13,526 nt of DNA from a virus. Lineage: Duplodnaviria > Heunggongvirae > Uroviricota > Caudoviricetes. Shown in pieces: positions 1,659-13,526 of the stretch; the first letter of the stretch is position 1, and every line of letters begins with the position of its first letter. The position numbers and the translations under genes were made by a program. The DNA is taken from IMG/VR virus record IMGVR_UViG_2713896773_000027. One strand, written 5' to 3'. A model generated the notes under the pieces. It ran no database searches. It was not told where the DNA came from and saw nothing but the letters and a program-made list of their open reading frames with translations.

Positions 1659-3290
1659 TTAAGAATCAGCCTGACTCGGGATCAGTTTTTGCCAGATAAC
1701 TGAAACGTATTTTGCCTGGTAACGGGCGTCATCAAGTGCATTATGGCGCTCACCTTCGAATGGAATAGCCGTTCTGGCATCGAAGTCTATGGCTTTCCCC
1801 AGCTCAACGATTGTGCGTACATCGCGATCGTTGTAGTAACGCCACGGGCAGGGGATCCCCTGCCGTTCGTATGAACGGCGCAAAATCGTGTTGTCGAAGT
1901 TGGCTCCATTTCCCCAAACCTGAACAAAAAATTCACCGGAGTTTTCGTCGATAAATTCTCGCAATTGTAACAGTGCATCATCTAACGGGATTTCATCGGT
2001 CATAATGGCAGATTGCGCTTCGCGTGATTGCTTAAGCCACCATTTAATGGTGTCCCGATCAATGACTCCGCCAGCAGTTTCCAGATCGATAGTCTTACTA
2101 AATTCCGGTCCCATATCTCCGGTTTGCGGATCGAAAAATATTGCACCTATTGAGATGATCGGGGCATCAGGATTTTTTCCCATGGTTTCAAGGTCGATCA
2201 TTAGATGGTCACACGTCCTGCTGGTGGATGTGATTTCGTGATGACCGTTCACCTTAATTGGGTGATCTGCCGTCTCGCCAGTTTCATTATCGCTATTGTG
2301 ATGCTGATTGCCGCCAGTGTTCTCCTTGTGTGGATGTTCAGCGCCTTCCATTTCCTCCGGATCATCTTCCTGAACTTCAACCTGATACTCTTCATCGAAT
2401 GTTTCTTGGTATGTTGCGTCGCCCATCACCGCGCCACAATCAGGGCAGTTGCCGCCGCCGGTCTGACCGCAGGCGGTGCAGACTTTTTCCACTTCCTGTT
2501 GCGCTACTGGTTCAGGCTGTTTCGTTTCTGGCTCGTTTTGTAACGCATTTGGACTGTTTTGTTCCGCTTTTTGGTAGTTCCGTTCCGATTCATGCTGGTT
2601 CTGGTTCACAGAATCGCGGGTCTGGAGCCCCTTAACCCATTTCGGATCATTCGGGTCACTAATCCCTTCAACAAATTCACCACGTGATGCAGCAAGCAAC
2701 TTATCGGCGTCAGGCTGGCTGATATTGGCTGCCTGCATAATTTTGTTTACTTCGTCAGCGGTAACTTTTATCGGCTCTGGTTGTTCTGAATCTTCAGCGG
2801 TATCTACATTTTGCGGTAAGCCCGTGTATGTGCCATTTTTTCGGGCAAAATATTCTTCTTTTGTGATTTCAGTGGCGCCAGCAGCCAGTGCCTTATCCAG
2901 ACCAGAGAGTTTGTTTGCGCGACCGTATTTTTCTCCGTCCTTATCTGCGAAGAGGAAATAGAACGGCCCCTCACGCTCTACAGATGGTTCAGCTTCCGGC
3001 GCGGTTTCATTTTTTGGGATATCAGATACCTCAGTTTCCACTGCATCAGTTTGTGTTTCTGATGACTGGAGAACATCAACAGTGCCCAGGTCTGTTTCTT
3101 CATTCTCAAACACGCCCTTTGTCGTCAGGTATTCGCAGATATATTTGTTCAGTGCTACGGGATCTTTGTGAATGTCGATCGGACGCTCACGGACAAGGCC
3201 AAAAATAGTTTGGCGGTCGTAGCGAAGGGCATCAGGCTGTTTGCGCATTGATGCCGAGATACGCTGAGGTAGCCTGAGTTTAACGGACAC
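1659..3290 (-). CDS. prophage exonuclease with C-terminal DnaQ-like (DEDDh) 3'-5' exonuclease domain and central Cys4 zinc-ribbon; probably 5'-truncated
   Basis: 543-aa ORF. The C-terminal third carries the three exonuclease motifs: Exo I MIDLETMG, Exo II VWGNGANFDNTIL, Exo III HNALDDARYQ. A Cys cluster CTACGQTGGGNCPDCG lies mid-protein. It occupies the position of recombination exonucleases in lambdoid early-left operons. The apparent GTG start at 3288-3290 lies inside the inferred IS3-family inverted repeat (3265-3290), and the first ATG (3246-3248) has no Shine-Dalgarno, so the native 5' end is probably lost. Confidence 0.7.
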   Translation of the reverse strand: MSVKLRLPQRISASMRKQPDALRYDRQTIFGLVRERPIDIHKDPVALNKYICEYLTTKGVFENEETDLGTVDVLQSSETQTDAVETEVSDIPKNETAPEAEPSVEREGPFYFLFADKDGEKYGRANKLSGLDKALAAGATEITKEEYFARKNGTYTGLPQNVDTAEDSEQPEPIKVTADEVNKIMQAANISQPDADKLLAASRGEFVEGISDPNDPKWVKGLQTRDSVNQNQHESERNYQKAEQNSPNALQNEPETKQPEPVAQQEVEKVCTACGQTGGGNCPDCGAVMGDATYQETFDEEYQVEVQEDDPEEMEGAEHPHKENTGGNQHHNSDNETGETADHPIKVNGHHEITSTSRTCDHLMIDLETMGKNPDAPIISIGAIFFDPQTGDMGPEFSKTIDLETAGGVIDRDTIKWWLKQSREAQSAIMTDEIPLDDALLQLREFIDENSGEFFVQVWGNGANFDNTILRRSYERQGIPCPWRYYNDRDVRTIVELGKAIDFDARTAIPFEGERHNALDDARYQAKYVSVIWQKLIPSQADS

Positions 3291-3591
3291 TCCTTCCTGA
3301 AATAGAATGGCATCAGAAGGAGCTAATAATGAGCAGAAAAACCCAACGTTACTCTAAAGAGTTCAAAGCCGAAGCTGTCAGAACGGTTCTTGAAAATCAA
3401 CTTTCGATCAGTGAAGGCGCTTCCCGATTATCTCTTCCTGAAGGCACTTTAGGACAATGGGTTACCGCCGCCAGAAAAGGGCTCGGTACTCCTGGTTCCC
3501 GCACGGTGGCTGAACTGGAATCTGAAATTCTGCAACTGCGTAAGGCGTTAAATGAAGCTCGCCTTGAGCGAGATATATTAAAAAAAGCAAC
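3265..3591 (+). mobile_element. IS3-family insertion sequence remnant (IS600-like), left end plus truncated orfA; interrupted by IS30
   Basis: The terminal sequence TGAGGTAGCCTGAGTTTAACGGACAC (3265-3290) starts with TG and ends with GGACAC like IS3-family left inverted repeats. It is followed after about 40 bp by an orfA-type ORF. The element stops abruptly at 3591, where the IS30 inverted repeat begins. No orfB or right inverted repeat is present in the window. Confidence 0.6.
3329..3591 (+). pseudogene. IS3-family transposase OrfA (IS600-like), truncated after codon 88 by IS30
   Basis: Translation MSRKTQRYSKEFKAEAVRTVLENQLSISEGASRLSLPEGTLGQWV...LERDILKKAT has the helix-turn-helix plus leucine-zipper layout of IS3-family OrfA. 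A Shine-Dalgarno AGGAG sits at 3318-3322. The last nucleotide of the final in-frame codon (ACT, Thr) is the first base of the IS30 terminal repeat. The 134-aa ORF on the track is an artefact running into IS30 and the N-run. Confidence 0.75.
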
Positions 3592-4595
3592 TGTAGATTC
3601 AATTGGTCAACGCAACAGTTATGTGAAAACATGGGGTTGCGGAGGTTTTTTGNNNNNNNNNNNNNNNNNNNNNNNNNNNNNNNNNNNNNNNNNNNNNNNN
3701 NNNNNNNNNNNNNNNNNNNNNNNNNNNNNNTAAGCGGGCTGTAGCTCACCTGACACTGTCTGAGCGCGAGGAGATACGAGCTGGTTTGTCAGCCAAAATG
3801 AGCATTCGTGCGATAGCTACTGCGCTGAATCGCAGTCCTTCGACGATCTCACGTGAAGTTCAGCGTAATCGGGGCAGACGCTATTACAAAGCTGTTGATG
3901 CTAATAACCGAGCCAACAGAATGGCGAAAAGGCCAAAACCGTGCTTACTGGATCAAAATTTACCATTGCGAAAGCTTGTTCTGGAAAAGCTGGAGATGAA
4001 ATGGTCTCCAGAGCAAATATCAGGATGGTTAAGGCGAACAAAACCACGTCAAAAAACGCTGCGAATATCACCTGAGACAATTTATAAAACGCTGTACTTT
4101 CGTAGCCGTGAAGCGCTACACCACCTGAATATACAGCATCTGCGACGGTCGCATAGCCTTCGCCATGGCAGGCGTCATACCCGCAAAGGCGAAAGAGGTA
4201 CGATTAACATAGTGAACGGAACACCAATTCACGAACGTTCCCGAAATATCGATAACAGACGCTCTCTGGGGCATTGGGAGGGCGATTTAGTCTCAGGTAC
4301 AAAAAACTCTCATATAGCCACACTTGTAGACCGAAAATCACGTTATACGATCATCCTTAGACTCAGGGGCAAAGATTCTGTCTCAGTAAATCAGGCTCTT
4401 ACCGACAAATTCCTGAGTTTACCGTCAGAACTCAGAAAATCACTGACATGGGACAGAGGAATGGAACTGGCCAGACATCTAGNNNNNNNNNNNNNNNNNN
4501 NNNNNNNNNNNNNNNNNNNNNNNNNNNNNNNNNNNAGTTCAAAACACCGAAAGAGATAATTGAAAGGGGTGTTGCATTGACAGATTGAATCTACA
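3592..4595 (+). mobile_element. IS30 insertion sequence; interior contains two N-runs (3653-3730, 4483-4535) that are assembly gaps of non-native length
   Basis: The ends are imperfect inverted repeats: left TGTAGATTCAATTGGTCAACGCAACAG (3592 onward), and the reverse complement of the right end (to 4595) is TGTAGATTCAATCTGTCAATGCAACAC. The internal ORF translates to the IS30 transposase sequence as I recall it. The flanks (..GCAAC | GTGTTG..) show no 2-bp target duplication. Confidence 0.85.
3732..4588 (+). CDS. insI: IS30 transposase (DDE family), visible portion; true start codon lies inside the first N-run and a mid-gene stretch inside the second
   Basis: The frame opening at 3732 reads KRAVAHLTLSEREEIRAGLSAKMSIRAIATALNRSPSTISREVQRNRG... 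and after the second gap ...KFKTPKEIIERGVALTD, ending at a TGA (4586-4588) inside the right inverted repeat. This matches the IS30 transposase. The interruptions are Ns, not mutations, so this is not necessarily a pseudogene. Confidence 0.85.
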
Positions 4596-4622
4596 GTGTT
4601 GTATTGTATAAATAGAGTACAT

Positions 4623-4664
4623 AAAGCCATCAATATTTCTATCGATGGCTTTATCTTTTTATTG
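4623..4664. terminator. hairpin (13-bp stem with one mismatch, 4-nt loop) followed by a T-run; likely terminator downstream of the tail-fibre assembly gene, possibly bidirectional
   Basis: AAAGCCATCAATA-TTTC-TATCGATGGCTTT (4623-4652) followed by ATCTTTTTATT on the + strand. On the - strand the same stem lies just after the tfa stop codon (4659-4661). It is 28 bp from the IS30 right end. Confidence 0.5.
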
Positions 4665-5237
4665 CGGGGCGACTGGCCACTCAACATCCGCTGCTACTGC
4701 TGTATCAACACGATTCAACAATACCCGATATGTCTTCCATGCAGTCAGTAACGATGCCTCTTCCTCCGTCGCAATATCCAAATCTACGGCATCCTGAAGT
4801 GGCGCAATATGCTCACTGGCCATCTGCATCAGGCTGTTTTTTGTTTCTTCCGCCTTCCGGATCCGGAACAGTTTTTCTGCTTCTGCATCTTTCACCCAGG
4901 CTGTGCCGTTCCACTTCTGAAACTCCCCTTCCGGGGATAACCAGGTGACATTTTCCGGTAATGGGCCAAGTTCAGAAATAAATAACGCGTCGCCGGAAGC
5001 CACGTCATAGACGGTTTTTCCCCGATGGTCTTCAACGAGATTCCACGATGCCTCATCACTGTTGAAAACGGCCACGAAGCCAGCCGGAATATCTGGCGGG
5101 GCAATATCGGTACTGTTTGCAGGCAGACCTGTATGAGGTGGAATGTATGCATCACCTTCACCAATAAACTCATTGGTTCCAGCCAGTAGATTATAAATTT
5201 TTATGGTCCGTGATTGTTCACTCATTCTGAATGTCAT
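4659..5237 (-). CDS. tfa: phage tail fibre assembly protein (Tfa / Mu U / P2 G family chaperone)
   Basis: 192-aa ORF. Its ATG overlaps the upstream tail-fibre stop by one base (TAATG), a classic Stf-Tfa coupling. The N-terminal region ([38 protein letters not shown]...) and size are typical of the Tfa family. Confidence 0.9.
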
Positions 5238-6853
5238 TATGCAAGCCTCACAATATAGTTAAATGCGATGTTTTTTACGGTGTTTTCTTCGTTACCCGTA
5301 GCGTTAACGGTGATGGTGTGTCCGTGGGGACCAATAATGACAGAATGGGCATGAGCACCAATGCCGATAGTGTGGTTATGGGCACCGATATATACATTGT
5401 GAGCATGCCCTCCTGCGCTCGACGTGGTACCAGTACCTAACGCAGCGTTATAACCGGCTGATACACCATTCCCCGCGCCAGTGTGACCAACAGGTATATT
5501 GTGTGAATGAGCTCCTGCGCTATTTGTGGTTTTTGTGCCGTAATCAAATGAACTGGTCGTTTTAGTACCGTAATCAAACGACGATGTGGTTTTCGTCCCC
5601 AAATCCGTACTGGATGCACTGGCGCTGTGGGTGTGCGATTTAATGCCGTCCTGTTCCTGAGACAATACTGCACGACCACTGGCGGGCTTGCCCTTAATCG
5701 TCCAGCTACGCATATCAGGGATCACACCTGACGGATAAGCGGCTGCAAGTTTCGGGTATGCAGATTTGTCAAAAGTCTGCCCCTGCATCAGGGCATAACC
5801 AGACGGAACGGTATCTGATGGCCAAGGGATCGGTGCGCCAACCGGATAAAGTTCATGCGGCGAAATATACAGCGAATAAACAGAACCGTCCGTTAATCCT
5901 TCCGGCTTATTAGCAGAATATGCTGGTGAAGTATGAATCGTTACGCTGGCATTACTGGTATAATCCCATTGAATATTTACACCAGTCGCATAATTTCCAA
6001 TAGCAACGTAAATATCGTAAGTGTCACCAGAAGTATTGACCCACGCAAAATTTGTAAACCCTGCCGATGTGCGCTGCCATAAAGCTCCAGTAATCCCCTT
6101 CGGATTACCGTTACCTGCACGCAAAACAAGTTCAGATATACCTGCCTGTTGAGGTGACCCCACGTTAAATCCCGCGCCACCAATCAACGTAATTGAAACA
6201 ACAGAACTTGCCTGCGGCATGGTTACAGTTGCCAGCTTGAACCATCCTGCACCACCACTAAAAGACATTGTTGTGGAGTTGATTGTGCCTATAGACCGTG
6301 GGTTAAGTTCAATATCTTTAGAACCATCAAACGAGACGCCATTGATAGCACATGCTGTCTGCAACTTGGTCGCTGTAGCCGCATTACCAGAGGTGTCCTG
6401 ATTCCCTTTGGCATTGACGCCGGGAATTGAATCTTTTGACGTATAGACCTGCGCCCATTCAGACCAGTTGGCAGAATCAGTATCCCGCCGCGAACGGATA
6501 TGTACGGGCGCATGGGCACCGCTCGTGCCACTCCAGCCAATGAATAACTCACCTTCGCCAGCAGCGGTGGCACCTTTAAGGTGAAGCACATTGCCATAGG
6601 GGGAAGGGTAGCCATTGTTGTATGCCTCATACAGCTGAATCCCGGATGTTCCCTGTGCATTCGCCTCCAGGGCCGTTACGCGACCGCGAGATACCAGAGT
6701 ATTGATATTAATGTCAGCCGAACCATCGAACCTGACGCCATTAATGTTTCTGGCTGTTTTTAATTTCGTCGCGGTGTCGGCGTTCCCCGCCAGCGCCCCG
6801 GTGATCCCACCGTTGAAAGTCTGGCGTGCACTCCATGTGTTAGCCGTGCTCAA
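5237..6853 (-). CDS. phage tail fibre protein, C-terminal variable (receptor-binding) cassette without its own start; reading frame stays open upstream through the crossover site to about 6931
   Basis: Contains two copies of the phage tail-fibre repeat ([26 protein letters not shown] and [28 protein letters not shown]), tandem [10 protein letters not shown] repeats, and C-terminal HxH repeats (HSHN, HAHN, HNHT, HAHS, HGHT). The listed start is a TTG chosen by the ORF finder. Translating upstream in frame gives ...[15 protein letters not shown]... with no ATG and no Shine-Dalgarno, consistent with a silent Sv'-type segment of an invertible host-range region. Confidence 0.85.
5528..5599. repeat. 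approximately 30-bp imperfect tandem repeat (about 2.4 copies) inside the tail-fibre coding region
   Basis: GGTTTTTGTGCCGTAATCAAATGAACTGGTC / GTTTTAGTACCGTAATCAAACGACGATGTG / GTTTTCGTCCCC on the + strand, encoding the [10 protein letters not shown] repeats on the - strand. Confidence 0.5.
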
Positions 6854-6883
6854 CAGGGGGATCTTTTCACCGCTTGTGCCAAG

Positions 6884-6909
6884 TTCTCTTAAACCAAGGT
6901 TTAGGATTG
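6884..6909. other. hix/gix/cix/pix-like 26-bp crossover site for the adjacent serine invertase
   Basis: TTCTCTTAAACC-AA-GGTTTAGGATTG is an imperfect palindrome with a central AA. By my recollection of hixL (TTCTTGAAAACCAAGGTTTTTGATAA) it matches at 19 of 26 positions. It overlaps the last codons of the invertase gene and lies in-frame within the upstream extension of the tail-fibre cassette. No second copy was found in the window. Confidence 0.6.
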
Positions 6910-7461
6910 AAATGATGACGCCGGAAACTTCTTATAAAGCGTGGAAACAGCCACATCATAGATGATTGCAACCTGCTTACGGGGGATGCCCTTCTCGAGC
7001 AATCGCCGCATTTGCTGCCATGTTTCTTCTTGGTATTTAGGCCGACGCCCACCTATACGACCTTCTGCGCGAGCTGCATCAAGTCCAGCGCGTGTACGTT
7101 CAACGATAAGCTCACGTTCCATTTCTGCCAGCGCCCCCATTACGTGAAAGAAAAAGCGCCCCATTGGTGTACTGGTGTCGATGGAGTCAGTGAGACTCCG
7201 GAAGTTAATGCCTCTGTCACGCAGCTCTTCCACCAGCACAACTAAGTGACGCATGCTGCGCCCAAGACGATCTAACTTCCATACGACTAGGGTGTCACCT
7301 CTGGAAAGCATACGGAGAACCTTTTTTAACCCAGGGCGTTCAGCCTTTTTGCCGCTCGCCTTGTCCTCAAAAATTAGCTTACATCCTGCGCTTTCAAGGG
7401 CATTTCGTTGTAAAGCAGTGTTTTGTTCATTTGTTGATACGCGTACATAGCCAATTAGCAT
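6901..7461 (-). CDS. pin: serine-recombinase DNA invertase (Hin/Gin/Cin/Pin family)
   Basis: 186-aa ORF starting [27 protein letters not shown]... with the catalytic Ser in the YVRVST motif, a resolvase/invertase catalytic domain ([16 protein letters not shown]...) and a C-terminal helix-turn-helix ([22 protein letters not shown]). It is very close to the E. coli Pin sequence as I recall it. The symbol denotes family membership, not a confirmed ortholog. Confidence 0.9.
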
Positions 7462-7588
7462 ATTTTCTGCTCACCATAGTTATTCATAGCAAGCTGCGGA
7501 TTTTAATTAACAGAAACCAGTGTGTGTGGAAATCACAAAGTGCATACCGTGCCCCAATGATGTTTTATTGAAAAGCGGGGTTACTTTA

Positions 7589-7870
7589 ATGTTTGATTTA
7601 ACCATATTTTTTATAACCATCCTTGGAGGCGTGCATTCGTTTCTGAATGGGGTTCGTGAAAAACGTTACGAAGCGTCATGCAGGCAATTGATGGCCGAGT
7701 GTATTGCTGCCGTACTTGCAGGCTTTATAGGCATGTATTTCGCGGAATATAAGGGTATGGATGAAAGTCTTCAGAATTGCGTGACTATTATTTGCAGCAT
7801 CAATAACAGGCTCATTCTTGAAAAGTTACAAAGGATTATCGATTCGTACCTCAGTAGCAATGCCTCTTAA
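7589..7870 (+). CDS. small membrane protein with two predicted transmembrane segments; holin-like (hypothesis)
   Basis: About 93 aa from the ATG at 7589; the track's GTG at 7520 has no Shine-Dalgarno. Hydrophobic stretches LTIFFITILGGVHSFL and CIAAVLAGFIGMYFA. Paralogous to the next ORF (GG..TFL..VR-D/E..; AGxxAxxLG motif). Function is inferred from size and topology only. Confidence 0.55.
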   Translation: MFDLTIFFITILGGVHSFLNGVREKRYEASCRQLMAECIAAVLAGFIGMYFAEYKGMDESLQNCVTIICSINNRLILEKLQRIIDSYLSSNAS

Positions 7871-7937
7871 GCAACAAATGACCGGTTGAGAAGTTACTTT
7901 GCATACCATTACCTCCTGACAACGTAGGAGGGAACTT

Positions 7938-8267
7938 GTGCTTGACACACAGGAATTAGCTCCAGTTGCTATTGCGCTCCTGCTTTCAGTAATTGGTGGG
8001 ATAGGCACGTTCCTGATGGATGTCCGAGACGGTCGCCAGTCTGGCAATTTGTTGGGATTGGTTACGGAGATCTTTGTTGCAGTGACAGCTGGCGCGGTGG
8101 CGTACCTATTGGGGCAACACGAGGGCTGGGAGTTATCAATTACGTACTTAATGGTAACGATAGCCAGCAATAACGGTCATGAGGTGATTTCAGGGATGAA
8201 ACGAGTGAATATCGATAGCATTCTGAATGTTCTTACAAGTTTGGTGAAAAAGGGAGGCGGGAAATGA
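7938..8267 (+). CDS. small membrane protein with two to three predicted transmembrane segments; holin-like paralog (hypothesis)
   Basis: 109 aa. GTG start preceded by a strong Shine-Dalgarno AGGAGG (7925-7930). Hydrophobic stretches VAIALLLSVIGGIGTFLM and IFVAVTAGAVAYLLG. Its stop overlaps the next gene's ATG (ATGA). Confidence 0.7.
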   Translation: MLDTQELAPVAIALLLSVIGGIGTFLMDVRDGRQSGNLLGLVTEIFVAVTAGAVAYLLGQHEGWELSITYLMVTIASNNGHEVISGMKRVNIDSILNVLTSLVKKGGGK

Positions 8268-8707
8268 TTGGCTGGGGTGTATGCGTTCTTGCGTTAGCCT
8301 TAGCCGATCGCTATTTGCTAAAACGCAAGGACATCACGCATTTAGAACTTGGTGATGTGGAAATTAAACCGGGTTTCATCCGGGTGCCGTTCAAATACCG
8401 GTCTAAATTCCCGTTTTTGCGCGGCGCAACAGTCAGATATTGGATCCGCGATGTTCAGAAGCCGACGACAGTGATTGAAGGCGAACAACGTTGTTTGACG
8501 TCGGCTGAACAGGGCGAAAACAGTGAATGGTTGTACATACCCACTGAATATATGGGTAAAGGAGAGCGACTGTGGCATTTCAACGTCATGGTTACGCATG
8601 GCGACTCGTTCATTAACCCGTTGTATCGGATTTTCCCTGTTACTCAGCAAATCCGCAGAAGTTACGTAATAAATCTCGCACAGGATGTGTCAGATGACGA
8701 AAAATAA
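8264..8707 (+). CDS. hypothetical protein with N-terminal signal-anchor-like hydrophobic segment
   Basis: 147 aa. ATG preceded by GGGAGG, overlapping the upstream stop. N-terminus MIGWGVCVLALALADRY is hydrophobic. No recognisable catalytic motif by eye. Confidence 0.65.
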   Translation: MIGWGVCVLALALADRYLLKRKDITHLELGDVEIKPGFIRVPFKYRSKFPFLRGATVRYWIRDVQKPTTVIEGEQRCLTSAEQGENSEWLYIPTEYMGKGERLWHFNVMVTHGDSFINPLYRIFPVTQQIRRSYVINLAQDVSDDEK

Positions 8708-9296
8708 GTATGCAACGGTCGATTTTGACCAGGTTAATGAAAAGGGGCTGAAATCCCTTATCGCGGCGATCAATAAAACCGGGGTTACGGTAATTGAGGT
8801 TGACTCCAGCAACCGCGCAACAACGAAAGATGGCGTTAAAGTTAAAACCGCAAAGCTGGTTCTTAACGACGGACAAATCCTTGCCATACAGGTAAACGAT
8901 ACTGGCGATATATCGTCTGTGAAACTGAATGGAAAAGCTATTCCTAACGCTCAGTCGCCGGATATCAAGACGCTTGGTACCGTCATGGGACAGGCGGCCC
9001 GCAAAAACTCCGCAAAATTCCAGAAATCACTGATCGCCAAAGCGAAGCGTGTAGCCAATCCGGTAGACAAGAAACCGGCAGTTAAATCCAACTTTCAGCG
9101 CCTGCAAGAAGCAAAACAGCGGAATGCTCAGGTGGTTGCCGCTTATAAGTCCGCGCAGAATTCGGTGTCTTTCAATCAACAGCAGATCACTGATTTGCGG
9201 GCGAAGCTGGATAAGGAGACGGGCCGACTCAATAACGAAAAGGCACGGAATGGCGAACTCAAACGTCGTCTTAAGCAACTGAAAGCAGGAAATTAA
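8694..9296 (+). CDS. hypothetical protein; N-terminal domain shared with the next ORF plus C-terminal basic coiled-coil
   Basis: About 200 aa from the ATG at 8694 (Shine-Dalgarno AGGA at 8682-8685); the track start at 8685 is less likely. The start overlaps the upstream gene's end. Shares LNDGQILAIQ ... KNSAKFQK with the next ORF. C-terminus is rich in K/R/Q/E heptad-like sequence. Confidence 0.7.
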   Translation: MTKNKYATVDFDQVNEKGLKSLIAAINKTGVTVIEVDSSNRATTKDGVKVKTAKLVLNDGQILAIQVNDTGDISSVKLNGKAIPNAQSPDIKTLGTVMGQAARKNSAKFQKSLIAKAKRVANPVDKKPAVKSNFQRLQEAKQRNAQVVAAYKSAQNSVSFNQQQITDLRAKLDKETGRLNNEKARNGELKRRLKQLKAGN

Positions 9297-9297
9297 C

Positions 9298-10329
9298 ATG
9301 GAACAGTTCAATATCAATAAAGGGGTGACGATCAAGCCTGGGCTTGACGTGCTTCCCCCGCCAGTGACTGATGATGAATATCGCGCATTAATGGCCGGTG
9401 AGGACCGCTATCTGATGACGGAATCCAACACCCTGGAGGAAATCGAGGCTACGTTCTTCTATGACACGCCGATCCACTGGTGTGCTACGGATTTACTGGA
9501 GGCGATTAGTTCTACTCGTTTGCAGTTACACCGGACCATGCAGGCATTTGTCCGGGCATTGAACCAGAAGCTGAATGGCACCGGAATCTCTGCGGGGAGT
9601 GATAAAACGGGGGATGTGGCCCAGAGCGGCGCGCGCGCGATCGGCGGTGCTGAAATTGGCCGGGCACGGAACGTTAACGGGCTGCCGGTCCTGCCAGCCA
9701 TTATTCCGCTCAGTGATGGTCAGACTATCAGCATTCTGTTTCATAGCCCGACAGCGGAAAACCGGATCACCAATAGCGATACGCTGGTTGCTTTCCAGTT
9801 CTTACTGAATAAAAAAGACGTTACTCACACCGTTGCTCCGATGAGTGGACGTGATATGACGCTGGCGCAGGTCACCATGAAACTTGCCAACCTTGCAGAG
9901 AAAAACTCGGCAAAATTCCAGCGTGCGCAGAAGAAGAAAAAAGCCCTGGTTGATGAAATAACCCAACTACAGGCTGACAGTGACCAGAAAGAGGATGCCA
10001 TGAGCGACCTCGCGGATCAGGTGGCAGCGGTAGAAGGGCAGAAGGTAGATCTGGAGCAGAAAATTAACGCTGTTGCATCGGAAGCGGATTCTCTTTATGA
10101 AGAGAATGAGCGTTTGCAGACGGAGATTGATCAGCTCAATCGCACTGGTGGGCGCGAAACCATTGCTCCTGCGGGGATGACTGGTGGACACTCTCGCGCG
10201 ATGACGGATCGCCTTGCAAGTATCAAAAATCGTATGCATATGAACGGGGAAGTGACGCTCAGTAATGGTGCATCAATGAAGCAATTCATTGAGGACGGTG
10301 AAGGGTATATCCAGTTAACTGGGATGTGA
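9298..10329 (+). CDS. hypothetical protein, paralogous domain (DGQ...KNSAKFQ) plus long acidic coiled-coil
   Basis: 343 aa. ATG one base after the upstream stop, Shine-Dalgarno AGGA at 9285-9288. Motifs LSDGQTISIL and EKNSAKFQRAQKKKK. Coiled-coil segment LVDEITQLQADSDQKEDAMSDLADQVAAVEGQKVDLEQKINAVASEADSLYEENERLQTEIDQL. Confidence 0.8.
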   Translation: MEQFNINKGVTIKPGLDVLPPPVTDDEYRALMAGEDRYLMTESNTLEEIEATFFYDTPIHWCATDLLEAISSTRLQLHRTMQAFVRALNQKLNGTGISAGSDKTGDVAQSGARAIGGAEIGRARNVNGLPVLPAIIPLSDGQTISILFHSPTAENRITNSDTLVAFQFLLNKKDVTHTVAPMSGRDMTLAQVTMKLANLAEKNSAKFQRAQKKKKALVDEITQLQADSDQKEDAMSDLADQVAAVEGQKVDLEQKINAVASEADSLYEENERLQTEIDQLNRTGGRETIAPAGMTGGHSRAMTDRLASIKNRMHMNGEVTLSNGASMKQFIEDGEGYIQLTGM

Positions 10330-11714
10330 AGACGCTGGATAAACAGGTTGATGTAACTCCCGATGAAGATGCTGTTATGCAGAAAATCAGTGGTGGCGTC
10401 TCCATCGCCGGGATTAACGACATCATTTCCTGTGACGATTTCTACCGTTTCCAGCAGCGCGGCATGATCAAAATCACTGACTCATACGGCGTTCAGACTA
10501 CAGAGTCAGGCTATAGCATTGATTTTGTTGGTACCTATACGGACCCACTGAAGCATGCGGTTTACCCGGATCGCCGTGACGGCGCGCTGAAGTCGTCAAT
10601 TGCAAAATGGGTGCTTGGTATGATGTCGGAAGGGAATAACCGCCAGATCCGTTCGGCAGAAACATTCCTGGTTGAACTGTTTGGCTCCAATTATGGCGAT
10701 GTAATCGCGTCATACGGAGATACGCTATCCCCTGAAGCAATTCAGGAGAAAATAGCGGATGCGATCGCCAGAATGCCGGAAAAAACAAGCCAGGGGGCTA
10801 CTCGTAACGGGGATTCTGAACTTGAAGTCACCAATGCCATTTTCGGTACCAATGAGTTCCGGGCGTCAGATTATGAGATCACCACAGCACAGTTTGGCAC
10901 CATTGGCATTTACAGCAATAAAGCCGAGATCAAGCAGGCAATGGACGCAGCAAGCGCGCGCATCGCAGCAGAACGGGAAGCCAATCTGAATCATGCAGTC
11001 GCCGCACTGACTCAATCGTGGGTAACAGCAATCAGGGAGGCCGCCACCACAGGGAAAATCACACCTGCAATTGCGGATGTCGTAAACGACGGCTCTAAAT
11101 TTATGGATGCCTATCAAATGGATGCGGTGCAGTTGCCATCAGCCTATGGCCAACTCAGCTATCGCATGACCTACAACCTGGTATCAATGTTTACTGACCT
11201 TGCCATCCTTGGGCTGGTGGACCTTAACGAGGTTACGCCGGAATTACTCAGCATGCGCAAGAATCATGTTGAGATATTGCAGAGAATTAACACGGTTCTT
11301 GCCGGGCGCACCGATGAAGAGAAACAGGCCGACGCTGATCGGATAAACCTGGCCCTAGGCAACATCACGGAGGAAGAAATTGCCGCCAGAAACGAGAAAC
11401 AAGAAGAGTTATCATCAATACAGGGTGATGCCACCAGCATAGCTCAGTCTCTTGGGCTGAATTATCGCGTATCCACCGCCGACCTGAAGATGATGTACGC
11501 ACCAAAATTCGCCGCTGGCGAGGTATTTGGGCTTCAGGAAGCCTCCGGCATGAAAGGGGTTCTTTTCCGTGCGAAAGACGCAATCAAGGCGAAATTCGGC
11601 GCTCGCTGGTTGCCAGCGAAGGCGAAGAACAGCGACTTCCCAGGTAACTGGTGGATTATCGAGACAAAACACAACGTGGCGGACGTTCTGGCCGTCATCC
11701 AACAATACGCATAA
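10326..11714 (+). CDS. hypothetical protein (462 aa), translationally coupled to the upstream gene
   Basis: GTG start overlapping the upstream TGA (GTGA). Long uninterrupted ORF. No Walker, nuclease or other catalytic motif recognised by eye. Confidence 0.8.
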   Translation: MKTLDKQVDVTPDEDAVMQKISGGVSIAGINDIISCDDFYRFQQRGMIKITDSYGVQTTESGYSIDFVGTYTDPLKHAVYPDRRDGALKSSIAKWVLGMMSEGNNRQIRSAETFLVELFGSNYGDVIASYGDTLSPEAIQEKIADAIARMPEKTSQGATRNGDSELEVTNAIFGTNEFRASDYEITTAQFGTIGIYSNKAEIKQAMDAASARIAAEREANLNHAVAALTQSWVTAIREAATTGKITPAIADVVNDGSKFMDAYQMDAVQLPSAYGQLSYRMTYNLVSMFTDLAILGLVDLNEVTPELLSMRKNHVEILQRINTVLAGRTDEEKQADADRINLALGNITEEEIAARNEKQEELSSIQGDATSIAQSLGLNYRVSTADLKMMYAPKFAAGEVFGLQEASGMKGVLFRAKDAIKAKFGARWLPAKAKNSDFPGNWWIIETKHNVADVLAVIQQYA

Positions 11715-11720
11715 CAGGAG

Positions 11721-11738
11721 CGCCCGGTTCGCCGGGCG
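11721..11738 (+). promoter_or_regulatory. intercistronic GC-rich stem-loop with TTCG tetraloop between a Shine-Dalgarno sequence and the next start codon
   Basis: CGCCCGG-TTCG-CCGGGCG. AGGAG (11716-11720) lies immediately 5' of the stem and the ATG at 11748 lies 9 nt 3' of it. There is no U-tract, so it is unlikely to be a simple terminator. Confidence 0.5.
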
Positions 11739-11747
11739 TCGCATAAT

Positions 11748-12188
11748 ATGGCCACATTATCTGATACAATAAAACCGAATAAAACATATCTTGAGGCGGT
11801 GCTGCGTACGGCGTTGTTAGGAAAGACAGAAGACGAATACGTTGATTTCTTCCTGTCAGGGCTACGCGGGCGATTACTGAAAAATCCCCGCCTGTACCGC
11901 AGCTATGGTCCATACTGGCCGGAAATTAAAAAATTATTACTGGAGCGCGGTTATGGTAATTTCGGTCGTCTCGTTGACCGTGACGTTCGCAAAATTTACC
12001 GTTATGACCGTCCGGCGCTGACGCTCATAGCCGCGACGCTCTACAGCCAGGAGCGTTTTGATAATGGTCAGATATACTCAGCCTGGCATTTACTGCCAGT
12101 GCCTGAAGAGGTTGACGACCAGGACTATGAGTTTGAGTCTTACGATTTGGAAGTTGAAGCCTTGGCACAGGCTGGAGAGAAAACTTGA
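11748..12188 (+). CDS. hypothetical protein (146 aa)
   Basis: ATG start 9 nt after the stem-loop. Acidic C-terminus (EEVDDQDYEFESYDLEVEALAQAGEKT). No recognisable domain by eye. Confidence 0.7.
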   Translation: MATLSDTIKPNKTYLEAVLRTALLGKTEDEYVDFFLSGLRGRLLKNPRLYRSYGPYWPEIKKLLLERGYGNFGRLVDRDVRKIYRYDRPALTLIAATLYSQERFDNGQIYSAWHLLPVPEEVDDQDYEFESYDLEVEALAQAGEKT

Positions 12189-12433
12189 AGAAGCGATACT
12201 ACACAGTAAAGCATGGGACGCTACGAGCATTGCAAGAGTTTGCTGATAAGCATAACGTTGAGGTGCGCAGGGAAGGGGGAAGTAAAGCTCTGCGCATGTA
12301 CCGTCCTGACGGAAAATGGCGGACGGTCGTCGATTTCAAAACTAACAGTGTTCCCCAGGGCGTCCGCGACCGGGCATTCGAAGAATGGGAGCAGATCATC
12401 ATAGATAACGCATTGCTTCTGAACGCTGATTAA
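12185..12433 (+). CDS. small basic hypothetical protein (82 aa), translationally coupled
   Basis: TTG start overlapping the upstream TGA (TTGA), with Shine-Dalgarno GGAGAG at 12171-12176. Last gene of the co-directional string before a hairpin. Confidence 0.6.
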   Translation: MKKRYYTVKHGTLRALQEFADKHNVEVRREGGSKALRMYRPDGKWRTVVDFKTNSVPQGVRDRAFEEWEQIIIDNALLLNAD

Positions 12434-12443
12434 TAATCATTTA

Positions 12444-12464
12444 AAGCCCATATGATATGGGCTT
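12444..12464 (+). terminator. hairpin (10-bp stem AAGCCCATAT / ATATGGGCTT) separating the coupled operon from the AT-rich downstream gene; weak U-tract
   Basis: A perfect inverted repeat is seen directly. It is followed by AAACAACAGG on the + strand, so intrinsic terminator function is uncertain. It coincides with a sharp shift in base composition. Confidence 0.4.
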
Positions 12465-12515
12465 AAACAACAGGATCGATATACAGTGTTAGTTAAATAT
12501 ATAGGCGAGAGTTAT

Positions 12516-13526
12516 ATGGAAAAACCTTGGCCGGGCATGCACATTAGAACATCTTGTCTGGAGGATGGTTTCTTTAGAGCAACGCAACCAAAGTATCTTA
12601 ATGATCCGTCGAGTGAGTCGCGACTTCTTCCATTTTTTAATAAATTTTCACCAGCCGATTACGCATGGGCTAGAAATGAATTTAAGAAAATGCAACGAGA
12701 TCCATCTTATGTCCCATCTATACAAGAGTTAGAGTATTATTTAAAACCTTGCGGGAAACGATACGGAGAGGATTTTCCACACTTGTTAATCAATGAAGGT
12801 TTTACCTCAATGGATTCATATGATGAATCTAAACTCCAAGAAATAGTAACGTACCTTAACGATTATTTAGTAGAAGCCGTAAGCTGTCATCTTGGTGTAT
12901 TCTCTCTATCAAAAAGTGATTGCAATCTACACATGTGGACTCATTATGCATCGATAGGAAAGGGGTTTGCTGTAGTTTTCGATGAAACACACGATTTTTT
13001 CAAAATATATAGGCCGTGTGATGTTAGTTATAATCCAGAAGATAGAGCATCTGTAACCTATTATAAAGGCGCTGTGCGATTTAATGGCTATCCTGCGCCA
13101 TCGAGGAATATAGATATAAAGAATAAAGATAATACATTGCATGGGATCTTAAATCGAGATTCAGTTCGCGAGCTTTTTATTAATAGGCTCCTTTATACAA
13201 AAGGTGAAGAGTGGCTTCCTGAAAATGAAAGTAGAATTATTTTTCCTTTAGCTGATTGCGAGAGAAAGATAGGAAGTATTGTCTCTCCATCGATTGATGA
13301 TTGCCTATTAAATGAGTATCCTGATGTTTTTCATGACTATCATGAAATTAACTTAAAGAAAATTCCTTTTTCTGCATTCAAGCAAATTACCTTAGGGTAT
13401 AACATGACTGAAAAAGATAAAAATATAATTTTAGATAAAGTTAGTTCGAATAAAGAATTGTCTCACGTCAACGTATTACATTCAAAACTTGATATATACG
13501 GAAAGGTTGTGGTTAAGCCCATGTAA
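12516..13526 (+). CDS. AT-rich orphan protein of unknown function (about 336 aa); candidate horizontally acquired accessory or defence gene
   Basis: ATG at 12516 with GAGAG 5 nt upstream; the track's GTG at 12486 is less likely. The ORF ends exactly at the window end (TAA). Visibly lower GC than all neighbours. Contains CHLGVFSLSKSDCNLHMWTHYASIGKGFAVVFDE. No known catalytic motif recognised by eye. Confidence 0.8.
   Translation: MEKPWPGMHIRTSCLEDGFFRATQPKYLNDPSSESRLLPFFNKFSPADYAWARNEFKKMQRDPSYVPSIQELEYYLKPCGKRYGEDFPHLLINEGFTSMDSYDESKLQEIVTYLNDYLVEAVSCHLGVFSLSKSDCNLHMWTHYASIGKGFAVVFDETHDFFKIYRPCDVSYNPEDRASVTYYKGAVRFNGYPAPSRNIDIKNKDNTLHGILNRDSVRELFINRLLYTKGEEWLPENESRIIFPLADCERKIGSIVSPSIDDCLLNEYPDVFHDYHEINLKKIPFSAFKQITLGYNMTEKDKNIILDKVSSNKELSHVNVLHSKLDIYGKVVVKPM

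Follow-up and report, generated by a model that had tools for sequence, protein, structure and literature searches.

The presence of a DNA invertase gene, a 26-bp crossover site and a tail-fiber gene without a beginning in the viral DNA segment analyzed here (13,526 nucleotides in total, hereafter the window) raises the question of whether this locus is a functional host-range switch or the leftover part of one. The initial annotation described it as an orphaned arm, with an intact invertase, a single site and a startless, silent fiber cassette accompanied by tfa, and concluded that the switch is locked. The sequence comparisons reported here support this reading of an orphaned cin-side arm with a promoterless cassette and a locked switch and allow its source to be specified: the region very likely derives from a P1-like (Punavirus) plasmid prophage, of whose invertible C segment it comprises the half next to cin, and survives within a degenerate remnant of about 9 kb (Table 1).

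Table 1. Features of the P1-like remnant and the adjoining IS30 (window coordinates)
Feature	Position	Strand	Basis
IS30, with two scaffold gaps	3592..4595	+	Terminal inverted repeats; N runs in source contig
Hairpin, center of the former C segment	4621..4654	.	Inverted repeat; folding
U'/tfa, tail-fiber assembly gene, 192 aa	4659..5237	-	Pfam Caudo_TAP, E 3.5e-42
Variable C-terminal tail-fiber cassette (Sv'-type)	5237..6896	-	Translation, Pfam Collar, JL22 Stf
Sole remaining 0.6-kb inverted repeat of the C segment	6306..6907	.	5' part common to Sv and Sv'
cixL crossover site	6884..6909	.	TTCTCTTAAACC-AA-GGTTTAGGATTG; P1 cixL annotation
cin, Din-family serine DNA invertase, 186 aa, full length	6901..7461	-	Pfam, P1 comparison
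Putative recombinational enhancer in the 5' part of cin	7372..7443	-	Homology to P1 annotation
Predicted sigma-70 promoter P1cin	7500..7532	-	P1 annotation and alignment
Rest of the P1-like remnant	7520..13526	+	Pfam, P1 annotation, BLAST, gene calls in relatives

Identity to P1 amounts to 97.4% over window positions 6306-10319, and identity to the P1-like plasmid p15648-1 (NZ_CP009051) to 99.1% over positions 4596-10319. Beyond cin, the remnant includes lydC, lydA, lydB, hdf, darA', the end of darB, ulx, lxc and a DUF2971 gene; the first 343 amino acids of darA directly adjoin the last 462 amino acids of darB, and the DUF2971 gene occupies the place of mod/res in P1. In the intact element, the order is Sc-cixR-[Sv-U-sacF-U'-Sv']-cixL-cin, where Cin, aided by Fis on the enhancer within cin, inverts the bracketed segment and thus joins either of the two C-terminal cassettes to the constant part of the fiber, changing the host range. 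The window shares with the C segment of P1 (AF234172 / NC_005856) an identical cixL, the location of the cin stop codon inside this site, the putative enhancer in the 5' part of cin and the lydC-lydA-lydB-hdf-darA neighborhood but has only one site and one arm, Sc, cixR, Sv and U all being absent. The arm itself also diverges distally: Sv' and U' of P1 are Mu-like, whereas the distal cassette and tfa of the window represent a module resembling Stf and Tfa of lambda.

The crossover site is the most clear-cut element of the region. The 26-mer in question (TTCTCTTAAACCAAGGTTTAGGATTG) is identical to the annotated cixL of P1 in all 26 positions, and the TAA stop codon of cin (6903-6901) falls within it, in agreement with the original observation that the invertase gene terminates inside a hix-like imperfect palindrome. 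The crossover point, taken from the P1 annotation, places the center of the site at 6896/6897, with the AA core at 6896-6897; the 12-bp half-sites form an imperfect inverted repeat around this 2-bp core, the inner one facing the cassette and the outer one holding the cin stop codon. The site occurs once in the window even when up to 8 mismatches are tolerated, and no match to it was obtained in 200 shuffles, which, together with the perfect identity to the P1 site, excludes a chance match. The alignment extends to other members of the site family: cixL has 19-20 of the 26 bases in common with gix of Mu, compared at the annotated G-segment boundaries, and with pix of e14, compared within stfP and just upstream of pinE, the expected ends of the P segment; pix also has the AA core of cixL. 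A scan of genome contigs with the 19-mer AGTTCTCTTAAACCAAGGT matched three loci, namely, a different E. coli tail fiber, a P1-like cixR fragment in a Bacillota metagenome-assembled genome and a chance match in Algoriphagus. Folding of the site region yielded z = +0.5, ruling out a structured RNA at cixL.

On the other side of the site, the fiber reading frame extends without interruption from 6931 down to a stop codon at 5237-5239, with no ATG ahead of the cassette, as noticed at the outset; the sole alternative start is a TTG at 6853 that lacks an obvious Shine-Dalgarno sequence, and the PGAP pipeline labels the gene in related genomes as "incomplete; missing N-terminus". The encoded polypeptide contains a Collar domain followed by a C-terminal tip with HxH repeats that is related to Stf of lambda, and the cassette and tfa together show 88% nucleotide identity to lambda stf/tfa. 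A full-length counterpart is found in the P1-like phage JL22 (ON018986), where a cassette 99.3% identical to that of the window is joined to the constant part in a Stf protein of 1006 amino acids; the alignment with residues 453-1007 of this protein spans 555 amino acids, without gaps and with 4 differences. Thus, the characterization of this arm as silent holds only in the positional sense, given that JL22 and several P1-like plasmids have this cassette in the expressed position. In many P1-like plasmids, the match to the cassette stops at window position 6907, exactly at the site, which is the break that the opposite orientation of the segment would produce. The 0.6-kb repeat is 96.5% and 97.4% identical to the two arms of P1, and 98.8% and 99.1% identical to those of p15648-1. 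The start codon of tfa at 5237 overlaps the fiber stop codon as TAATG, in line with the translational coupling originally proposed, and the Tfa protein is WP_000144014.1, which is annotated also in NCTC9040 and p15648-1. Past tfa, the sequence runs, as described, into a hairpin (-20.5 kcal/mol on the minus strand, z = -6.7, detected by folding and by a repeat finder, and not reported by a consensus terminator scan) and then into IS30. In the intact relatives p15648-1 and JL22, which share with the window the cassette and tfa (99.1-99.3% nucleotide identity), the central hairpin, cixL and cin, but retain the complete Sc-cixR-arm-sacF-arm-cixL-cin arrangement, the hairpin separates sacF and U', which converge on it.

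We searched for the missing half of the switch by scanning for cixL and cixR sites with up to 8 mismatches and for Sc by tblastn with the P1 sequence. The scan covered the window, 17.6 kb of the 25-kb source contig and 21 kb around the site (within 10 kb of it) in E. coli NCTC9040. In these sequences, neither cixR, nor Sc, nor the second arm was detected, confirming the reported absence of the Sc-Sv-U side, whereas in the controls, P1, p15648-1 and JL22, two sites each and Sc were found (the tblastn match of P1 Sc to the control plasmid showed 96.5% identity). The window encompasses one cassette and one tfa only, and the 0.6-kb repeat is present in one copy in the NCTC9040 chromosome compared to two in the intact P1-like plasmids. 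The cin-cixL-Sv' order is constant in the 10 distinct contexts shown for this exact Cin, and short-read contigs traverse the 0.6-kb repeat without interruption. Nowhere in the three scanned sequences do two inverted crossover sites lie on one molecule, nor is there a constant 5' fiber part with a pair of interchangeable 3' cassettes and a tfa for each of them. With a single crossover site and no constant part, inversion is impossible, and with no start codon and no Sc, the cassette is not translatable as a fiber. By extension, the cassette is probably not expressed, and the rest of the source genome probably lacks a partner site. The source strain (GCA_001309485.1) could, for its part, harbor an intact P1-like plasmid alongside the remnant or a cix-like site far from it.

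On the side of the missing arm, the sequence runs into IS30, as described initially; comparison with related strains assigns the loss of that arm to IS1. In the gap-free relative L011, the order is IS1, 198 nt of sacF, IS30 flanked by a GT duplication, and U', so that IS30 is a simple insertion between sacF and U' with a 2-bp target duplication, and it is IS1 that makes the cut; IS30 was accordingly rejected as the cause of the truncation. In NCTC9040, IS1 adjoins the remnant at window position 4643, and in plasmid A of H15, at 7803, beside repA/parA/parB of the P1 type. Very likely, IS30 inserted between sacF and U', after which adjacent deletions mediated by IS1 took sacF, U, Sv, cixR and Sc together with all sequence farther out, leaving U', Sv', cixL, and cin with its enhancer. 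Such stepwise erosion of a P1-derived element by IS1 and IS30 across close strains provides a clear worked example of the process.

The IS30 copy in the window itself appears anomalous. It has terminal inverted repeats of 26-28 nt (3590-3617 and 4570-4597) and transposase fragments that match the HTH_38 and rve domains, but is only 1004 bp long, compared to 1221 bp for IS30, and includes runs of N at 3653-3730 and 4483-4535. Identical runs in the source contig identify these as scaffold gaps of a draft assembly; deliberate masking can be dismissed given that the same runs are present in the contig and that each falls short of the length of IS30 sequence missing at its place. The flanks of the element do not match, with AC adjoining orfA of IS600 on the left and GT adjoining P1-like DNA on the right, whereas full 1221-bp copies with matching 2-bp duplications are found in L011 (GT) and FORC 064 (AC). 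Hence the IS30 of the window is probably a hybrid of two insertions, either real or produced by scaffolding. Between these two possibilities, we slightly favor a scaffolding chimera of two IS30 copies, such that the apparent join of a prophage at the Qin site, truncated IS600, IS30 and the P1 remnant would be spurious and the true location of the remnant would be a different one, such as beside IS1 or on a P1-derived plasmid. Apart from the gaps, this interpretation is compatible with the independent occurrence of both junctions: the left one, exo-IS600'::IS30, has a counterpart covering at least 80% of the query in 37 complete genomes, with a 100% match over the full query length in the 20 of these 37 genomes that were listed, and in FORC 064, the one genome examined, the remainder of IS600 lies on the far side of IS30, with the AC duplication; the right end of IS30 next to U' belongs, in L011, to the insertion with the GT duplication that has sacF on its far side. 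In H15, furthermore, the remnant is located on a plasmid with a P1-type replicon. Nevertheless, a hybrid IS30 with mismatched flanks is exactly what homologous recombination between two IS30 copies, resulting in plasmid integration, is expected to yield, and the remnant can be chromosomal, as NCTC9040 demonstrates, so that a real cointegrate is an almost equally probable alternative. Whichever of these applies, the gapped scaffold makes the DNA to the left of IS30 uncertain, and the seeming connection of the P1 remnant to the Qin-site prophage is not to be trusted.

The orphaned arm retains an invertase gene that looks intact. The Cin protein combines an N-terminal Resolvase domain (E 5e-51) with a C-terminal HTH_7 domain (E 2e-18), has the catalytic Ser9 in the GYVRVS context and aligns over residues 1-182 with the Gin structure 3UJ3 (E 3e-88). 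Comparison with the Cin proteins of P1 and p15648-1 showed identity to P1 Cin at 185 of 186 positions, the sole difference being E28K. The hexamers of P1cin are unchanged relative to P1 (-10, TAAAAT, 7505-7500; -35, TTTCCA, 7532-7527), and the 72-bp putative enhancer is identical in 69 positions to the P1 feature annotated as "enhancer of Cin-mediated C-segment inversion", one of the three changes being the E28K codon. Thus, cin looks expressible and hence would qualify as an orphan invertase gene. Position 28 is acidic in P1 Cin and Gin, whereas gamma-delta resolvase carries lysine at the aligned position; the substitution at this acidic position, together with the altered enhancer base, renders the activity of the protein uncertain, even if we infer that the E28K variant may be active.

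If so, the orphan Cin could still act, either in trans on another Din-family invertible segment, of the e14 P type, or by recombining cixL with a secondary site to generate large inversions or deletions. Beyond the full-length gene, its single substitution and the conserved regulatory elements, this possibility draws on the similarity of pix to cixL, with the shared AA core, and on the abundance of related systems: NCTC9040 carries a second cin homolog in its chromosome, so that related sites may exist there, and at least one homolog is present in 3755 of 5426 E. coli genomes. Moreover, Cin, Gin, Pin and Hin complement one another, and quasi-cix sites are occasionally used by Cin, at low frequency. 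We nonetheless consider such residual activity unlikely. The exact Cin protein was found on 24 contigs, and in all 10 distinct contexts among those listed, the cin-cixL-Sv' order is the same, with no rearranged cixL junction; there is also no sign of selection, the entire remnant being 100% identical between strains, which implies that it is young. That an active orphan cin with E28K, beside a cixL without any change and an enhancer with few, would be kept in a lineage of E. coli appears quite improbable. If this were the case, it could invert further Din-type segments in trans or bring about infrequent large rearrangements or cointegrations between cixL and secondary AA-core sites, such as pix of e14. 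The orphan gene, intact in sequence, is thus a possible source of trans-acting inversion activity.

The explanation that the switch is intact in the actual genome, with the second arm, cixR and Sc lost through assembly breaks or mis-scaffolding at repeats, takes its cue from the draft status of the source scaffold, with N gaps inside both IS30 and IS5 and mismatched flanks of IS30, but is extremely improbable. In the complete chromosome of NCTC9040, the remnant matches that of the window at 100% over 8884 nt, the repeat occurs once, and U' is followed immediately by IS1. In the gap-free L011, IS1 cuts sacF 198 nt beyond IS30, and contigs of nine assemblies cross the 602-bp repeat unbroken, which is unlikely were a second copy present. 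Missing from the remnant, in addition, are all structural genes and the stretch of about 16 kb that separates darA from darB.

The preferred reading, a locked cin-side half of a P1-like C segment, can be compared with the other known invertible systems. The initial annotation placed the arm in a class comprising the Mu G, P1 C and e14 P segments; the P1 assignment stands, whereas the Mu and e14 layouts are ruled out by the orientation of the invertase gene relative to the site. Mu G/gin and e14 P/pin share with the window the invertase family, the 26-bp site family and the alternative fiber C-termini with tfa, but gin and pin are oriented away from the neighboring silent cassette, with the start of the gene beside the site and, accordingly, the site upstream of the invertase gene; the window has the arrangement of P1, in which the invertase gene reads in the same direction as the cassette and ends within the site.

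Insertion sequences that truncate cin or the C segment have been described in the degenerate P1-like plasmids pSvP1, pTZ20_1P and pJIE250-3, where host-range switching was judged by the authors to be disabled (Venturini et al. 2019, PMC6906374): cin is truncated in pSvP1 and pTZ20_1P, whereas pJIE250-3 has cin in the orientation opposite to that in P1, along with a greatly modified C segment. The window differs from these plasmids in that it retains intact cin and cixL but has lost the far half, and in that the insertion sequences involved are IS30 and IS1. The locus is thus the P1 Cin/cix host-range switch in the course of ordinary IS-driven decay, a kind of prophage decay already described, and the significance of this case is small, the system being a textbook one and the same type of decay having been published for P1-like plasmids.

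Orphan invertase genes of the pin group are present also in cryptic prophages of E. coli K-12, namely, pinR (Rac), pinQ (Qin) and pinH, in each case a Din-family invertase gene located beside tail-fiber/tfa remnants in a defective prophage, with no working invertible segment. These remnants are lambdoid and much more diverged than the remnant in the window, which is very recent, derived from P1 and endowed with a perfect cixL.

The stretch described in the initial annotation as the orphaned half of an invertible tail-fibre segment (4659-7461) is the cin-proximal end of the invertible host-range switch (C segment) of a P1-like phage. Nucleotides 6306-10319 are 97.4% identical to P1, and 4596-10319 are 99.1% identical to the intact P1-like plasmid p15648-1; the portion 6306-6907 aligns with each C-segment arm of P1 and p15648-1 and is therefore the 0.6-kb inverted repeat. 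The P1 neighbors lydC, lydA, lydB, hdf and darA follow on the right. The gene order in intact relatives is Sc-cixR-Sv-U-sacF-U'-Sv'-cixL-cin, where Sc is the constant 5' part of the tail-fibre gene, Sv and Sv' are the alternative C-terminal cassettes, and U and U' are the matching tfa genes; cin and the adjacent cassette are co-directional, and cin ends within cixL. In Mu and e14, by contrast, the invertase gene and its neighboring cassette diverge, with the site upstream of the invertase gene. Relative to the original "Mu G / P1 C / e14 P-type" assignment, the layout is specific to P1. As described earlier, the invertase gene ends inside a 26-bp hix-like site; this site is equal at every base to annotated P1 cixL, with the P1 crossover point mapping to 6896/6897. 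Mu gix and e14 pix have 19-20 of the 26 bases in common with it, the AA core being shared with pix. The serine acetyltransferase gene sacF, located mid-segment between the two tfa genes (8448-9020 in L002 and 4043-4519 in L018, two relatives of this kind), is present at the C-segment center in P1-like plasmids and the intact P1-like phage JL22 but not in P1 itself, nor in the window.

Features of the truncated C segment and its borders
Feature	Coordinates	Strand	Remarks
IS30 inverted repeats	3590-3617 and 4570-4597		right end downstream of the hairpin
Hairpin	4621-4654		strong (-20.5 kcal/mol, z -6.7); downstream of tfa
tfa		-	192 aa; Caudo_TAP tail-fibre assembly domain match; start overlaps the fibre stop as TAATG
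Tail-fibre reading frame	open from 6931 to stop at 5237-5239	-	ATG absent before the cassette
cixL	6884-6909		TTCTCTTAAACCAAGGTTTAGGATTG; contains the recombinase stop codon
cin	7461..6901	-	186-aa serine recombinase; Resolvase (E 5e-51) and HTH_7 (E 2e-18) domains

The cin gene is full length, and comparison of the proteins reveals a single change from P1 Cin, E28K; 69 of the 72 bases of the enhancer annotated inside P1 cin are the same, and the predicted P1cin promoter has the same hexamers. Residue 28 is acidic in both P1 Cin and Gin; because the aligned residue of gamma-delta resolvase is lysine, the substitution would not be obviously disabling.

The cassette indeed lacks a start and is coupled to tfa, as initially proposed: the sole candidate start in the fibre frame is a TTG at 6853 with no convincing ribosome-binding site, and the PGAP annotation of the same fibre gene reports a missing N-terminus. 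In JL22, the same cassette (99.3% nucleotide identity; 4 amino-acid differences in 555) is joined to Sc, yielding a 1006-aa fibre, and in several P1-like plasmids the match to the window ends at 6907, exactly at the site, the pattern expected from the opposite orientation of the segment. Other elements use this cassette as a functional host-range module; "silent" therefore describes where it lay when the truncation happened, rather than the module as such. The distal part of the cassette and tfa are approximately 88% identical to lambda stf/tfa. A match to Rfam IS009 (RF02111; 192.7 bits; 4696-4894, minus strand) lies wholly within the tfa coding sequence and most likely reflects tfa conservation rather than a separate RNA gene.

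Inversion in the Cin family requires two inverted sites in cis and a Fis-bound enhancer. A search for partners (at most 8 mismatches to cixL or cixR, and tblastn with P1 Sc) recovered cixL, cixR and Sc in the controls P1, p15648-1 and JL22; in the window, 17.6 kb of the 25-kb source contig and 21 kb of the chromosome of NCTC9040, a complete Escherichia coli genome with the same remnant, it found only cixL, with neither cixR nor Sc. A single site is no substrate for inversion, and the missing Sc deprives the cassette of a start codon and of the N-terminal half of the fibre. The switch would thus be locked and the cassette untranslatable, a conclusion of the initial annotation with which the PGAP call agrees. 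Alternatively, and less probably, a partner for cixL may reside elsewhere in the source genome, at a distance or on a plasmid. NCTC9040 is 100% identical to window 4643-13526, and the repeat together with the site matches one place in its chromosome, compared with two in intact P1-like plasmids. The exact Cin protein is encoded in 24 public contigs; in all 10 distinct contexts shown, the cin-cixL-cassette order is the same and no rearranged junction at cixL was seen. The 602-bp repeat is spanned unbroken by short-read contigs, evidence for a single copy in the genomes concerned. A further cin homologue is present in NCTC9040, and at least one occurs in most E. coli genomes. The orphan Cin might also act on DNA elsewhere, though this is less probable. 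The region is the known P1 Cin/cix system minus one half, and orphan pin genes in the cryptic prophages of K-12 are a familiar parallel. IS elements that truncate cin and the C segment in P1-like plasmids have been published (PMC6906374).

Beyond tfa, the hairpin and then the right end of IS30 follow as first described. IS30 adjoins the arm but did not cut it: L011, a gap-free relative, has the same right IS30 junction as the window, and its IS30 has simply inserted between sacF and U', duplicating GT, whereas the truncation point is made by IS1, 198 nt further into sacF. In NCTC9040, IS1 (identical across the 127 nt compared) adjoins window position 4643, with sacF, IS30 and 47 more bases lost; in E. 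coli H15 plasmid A, IS1 adjoins 7803, U', Sv', cin and lydC are lost, and the remnant adjoins P1-type repA/parA/parB. These three junctions make up a stepwise series of IS1-adjacent deletions eroding a degenerate P1-derived plasmid, which NCTC9040 has integrated into its chromosome. The overall reading as an orphaned half is supported, refined by the P1-type layout, the purely positional sense of "silent" and, with the scaffold caveat given below, the cutting by IS1. Besides its P1-type replication and partition genes, H15 plasmid A (NZ_CP010179) retains bits of the P1 dar/lyd region and carries, between IS1 copies, encapsulin with a Dyp peroxidase and a tetrathionate reductase operon; the same block is present in the NCTC9040 chromosome. 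This plasmid looks like a P1-derived replicon turned cargo plasmid.

A scaffold caveat applies to the IS30 of the window, which is 1004 bp long compared with 1221 bp for a full copy. It contains N runs at 3653-3730 and 4483-4535 (78 nt in place of approximately 156 nt of IS30 sequence, and 53 nt in place of 192 nt) that are also present in the source contig LDYI01000177.1 (GCA_001309485.1), along with two further N runs in an IS5 at the opposite end of the remnant; these N runs are gaps left by the scaffolding of the draft assembly. At the left junction, which neighbors the integrase of a prophage at the rspB/Qin site, IS600 orfA (3329-3591) is broken after ...AAAAAGCAAC, with TGTAGA next and IS30 from 3592. 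A place covering at least 80% of this junction query is found in 37 complete E. coli genomes, and the 20 listed of these match at 100% over the full length, all in chromosomal records. In FORC 064, the only one of the 37 examined, IS30 is a simple insertion beside rspB, with an AC duplication and the remaining IS600 next to it. The window IS30 combines the left flank of one insertion with the right flank of another, which could have arisen by chimeric scaffolding or by genuine recombination between two IS30 copies (a cointegrate); given these hybrid flanks, the linkage between the P1 remnant and the Qin-site prophage is to be treated as unproven. In H15 plasmid A, IS30 occupies the equivalent ILKKA-coding position in the orfA of another IS3-family element; this may reflect a target preference of IS30. 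In the 543-aa ORF at 1659-3290 (minus strand), only the last 180 aa correspond to an Rv2179c-like 3'-5' exonuclease domain. PGAP calls the FORC 064 homologue of this ORF a pseudogene with a missing N-terminus, so the lambdoid prophage of the rspB/Qin site seems to break off, truncated, where IS600 is inserted.

On the other side of cin, the mechanically predicted lydC ORF (7520-7870) has a GTG start and 116 aa, compared with 93 aa for the gene annotated in P1 and relatives, the true start probably being a downstream codon. At 9298-11714, darA stops after 343 codons and adjoins the last 462 codons of darB, with approximately 16-17 kb of the P1 backbone deleted (ddrA, ddrB, the IS1 region, pro, prt and others); among complete genomes, the identical junction occurs only in NCTC9040 and two 116-119-kb plasmids (H15 plasmid A and LT883139). 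A 346-aa DUF2971 gene (12486-13526) follows lxc in place of the P1 EcoPI mod/res genes; P1-like elements are known to vary here (region RD-1). Finally, a 3.7-kb contig of a "Bacillota bacterium" MAG (JAFAFU010000077.1, L006) contains, at 908-1060, a P1-like S fragment with a perfect cixR; the bin is probably contaminated with enterobacterial or phage DNA.
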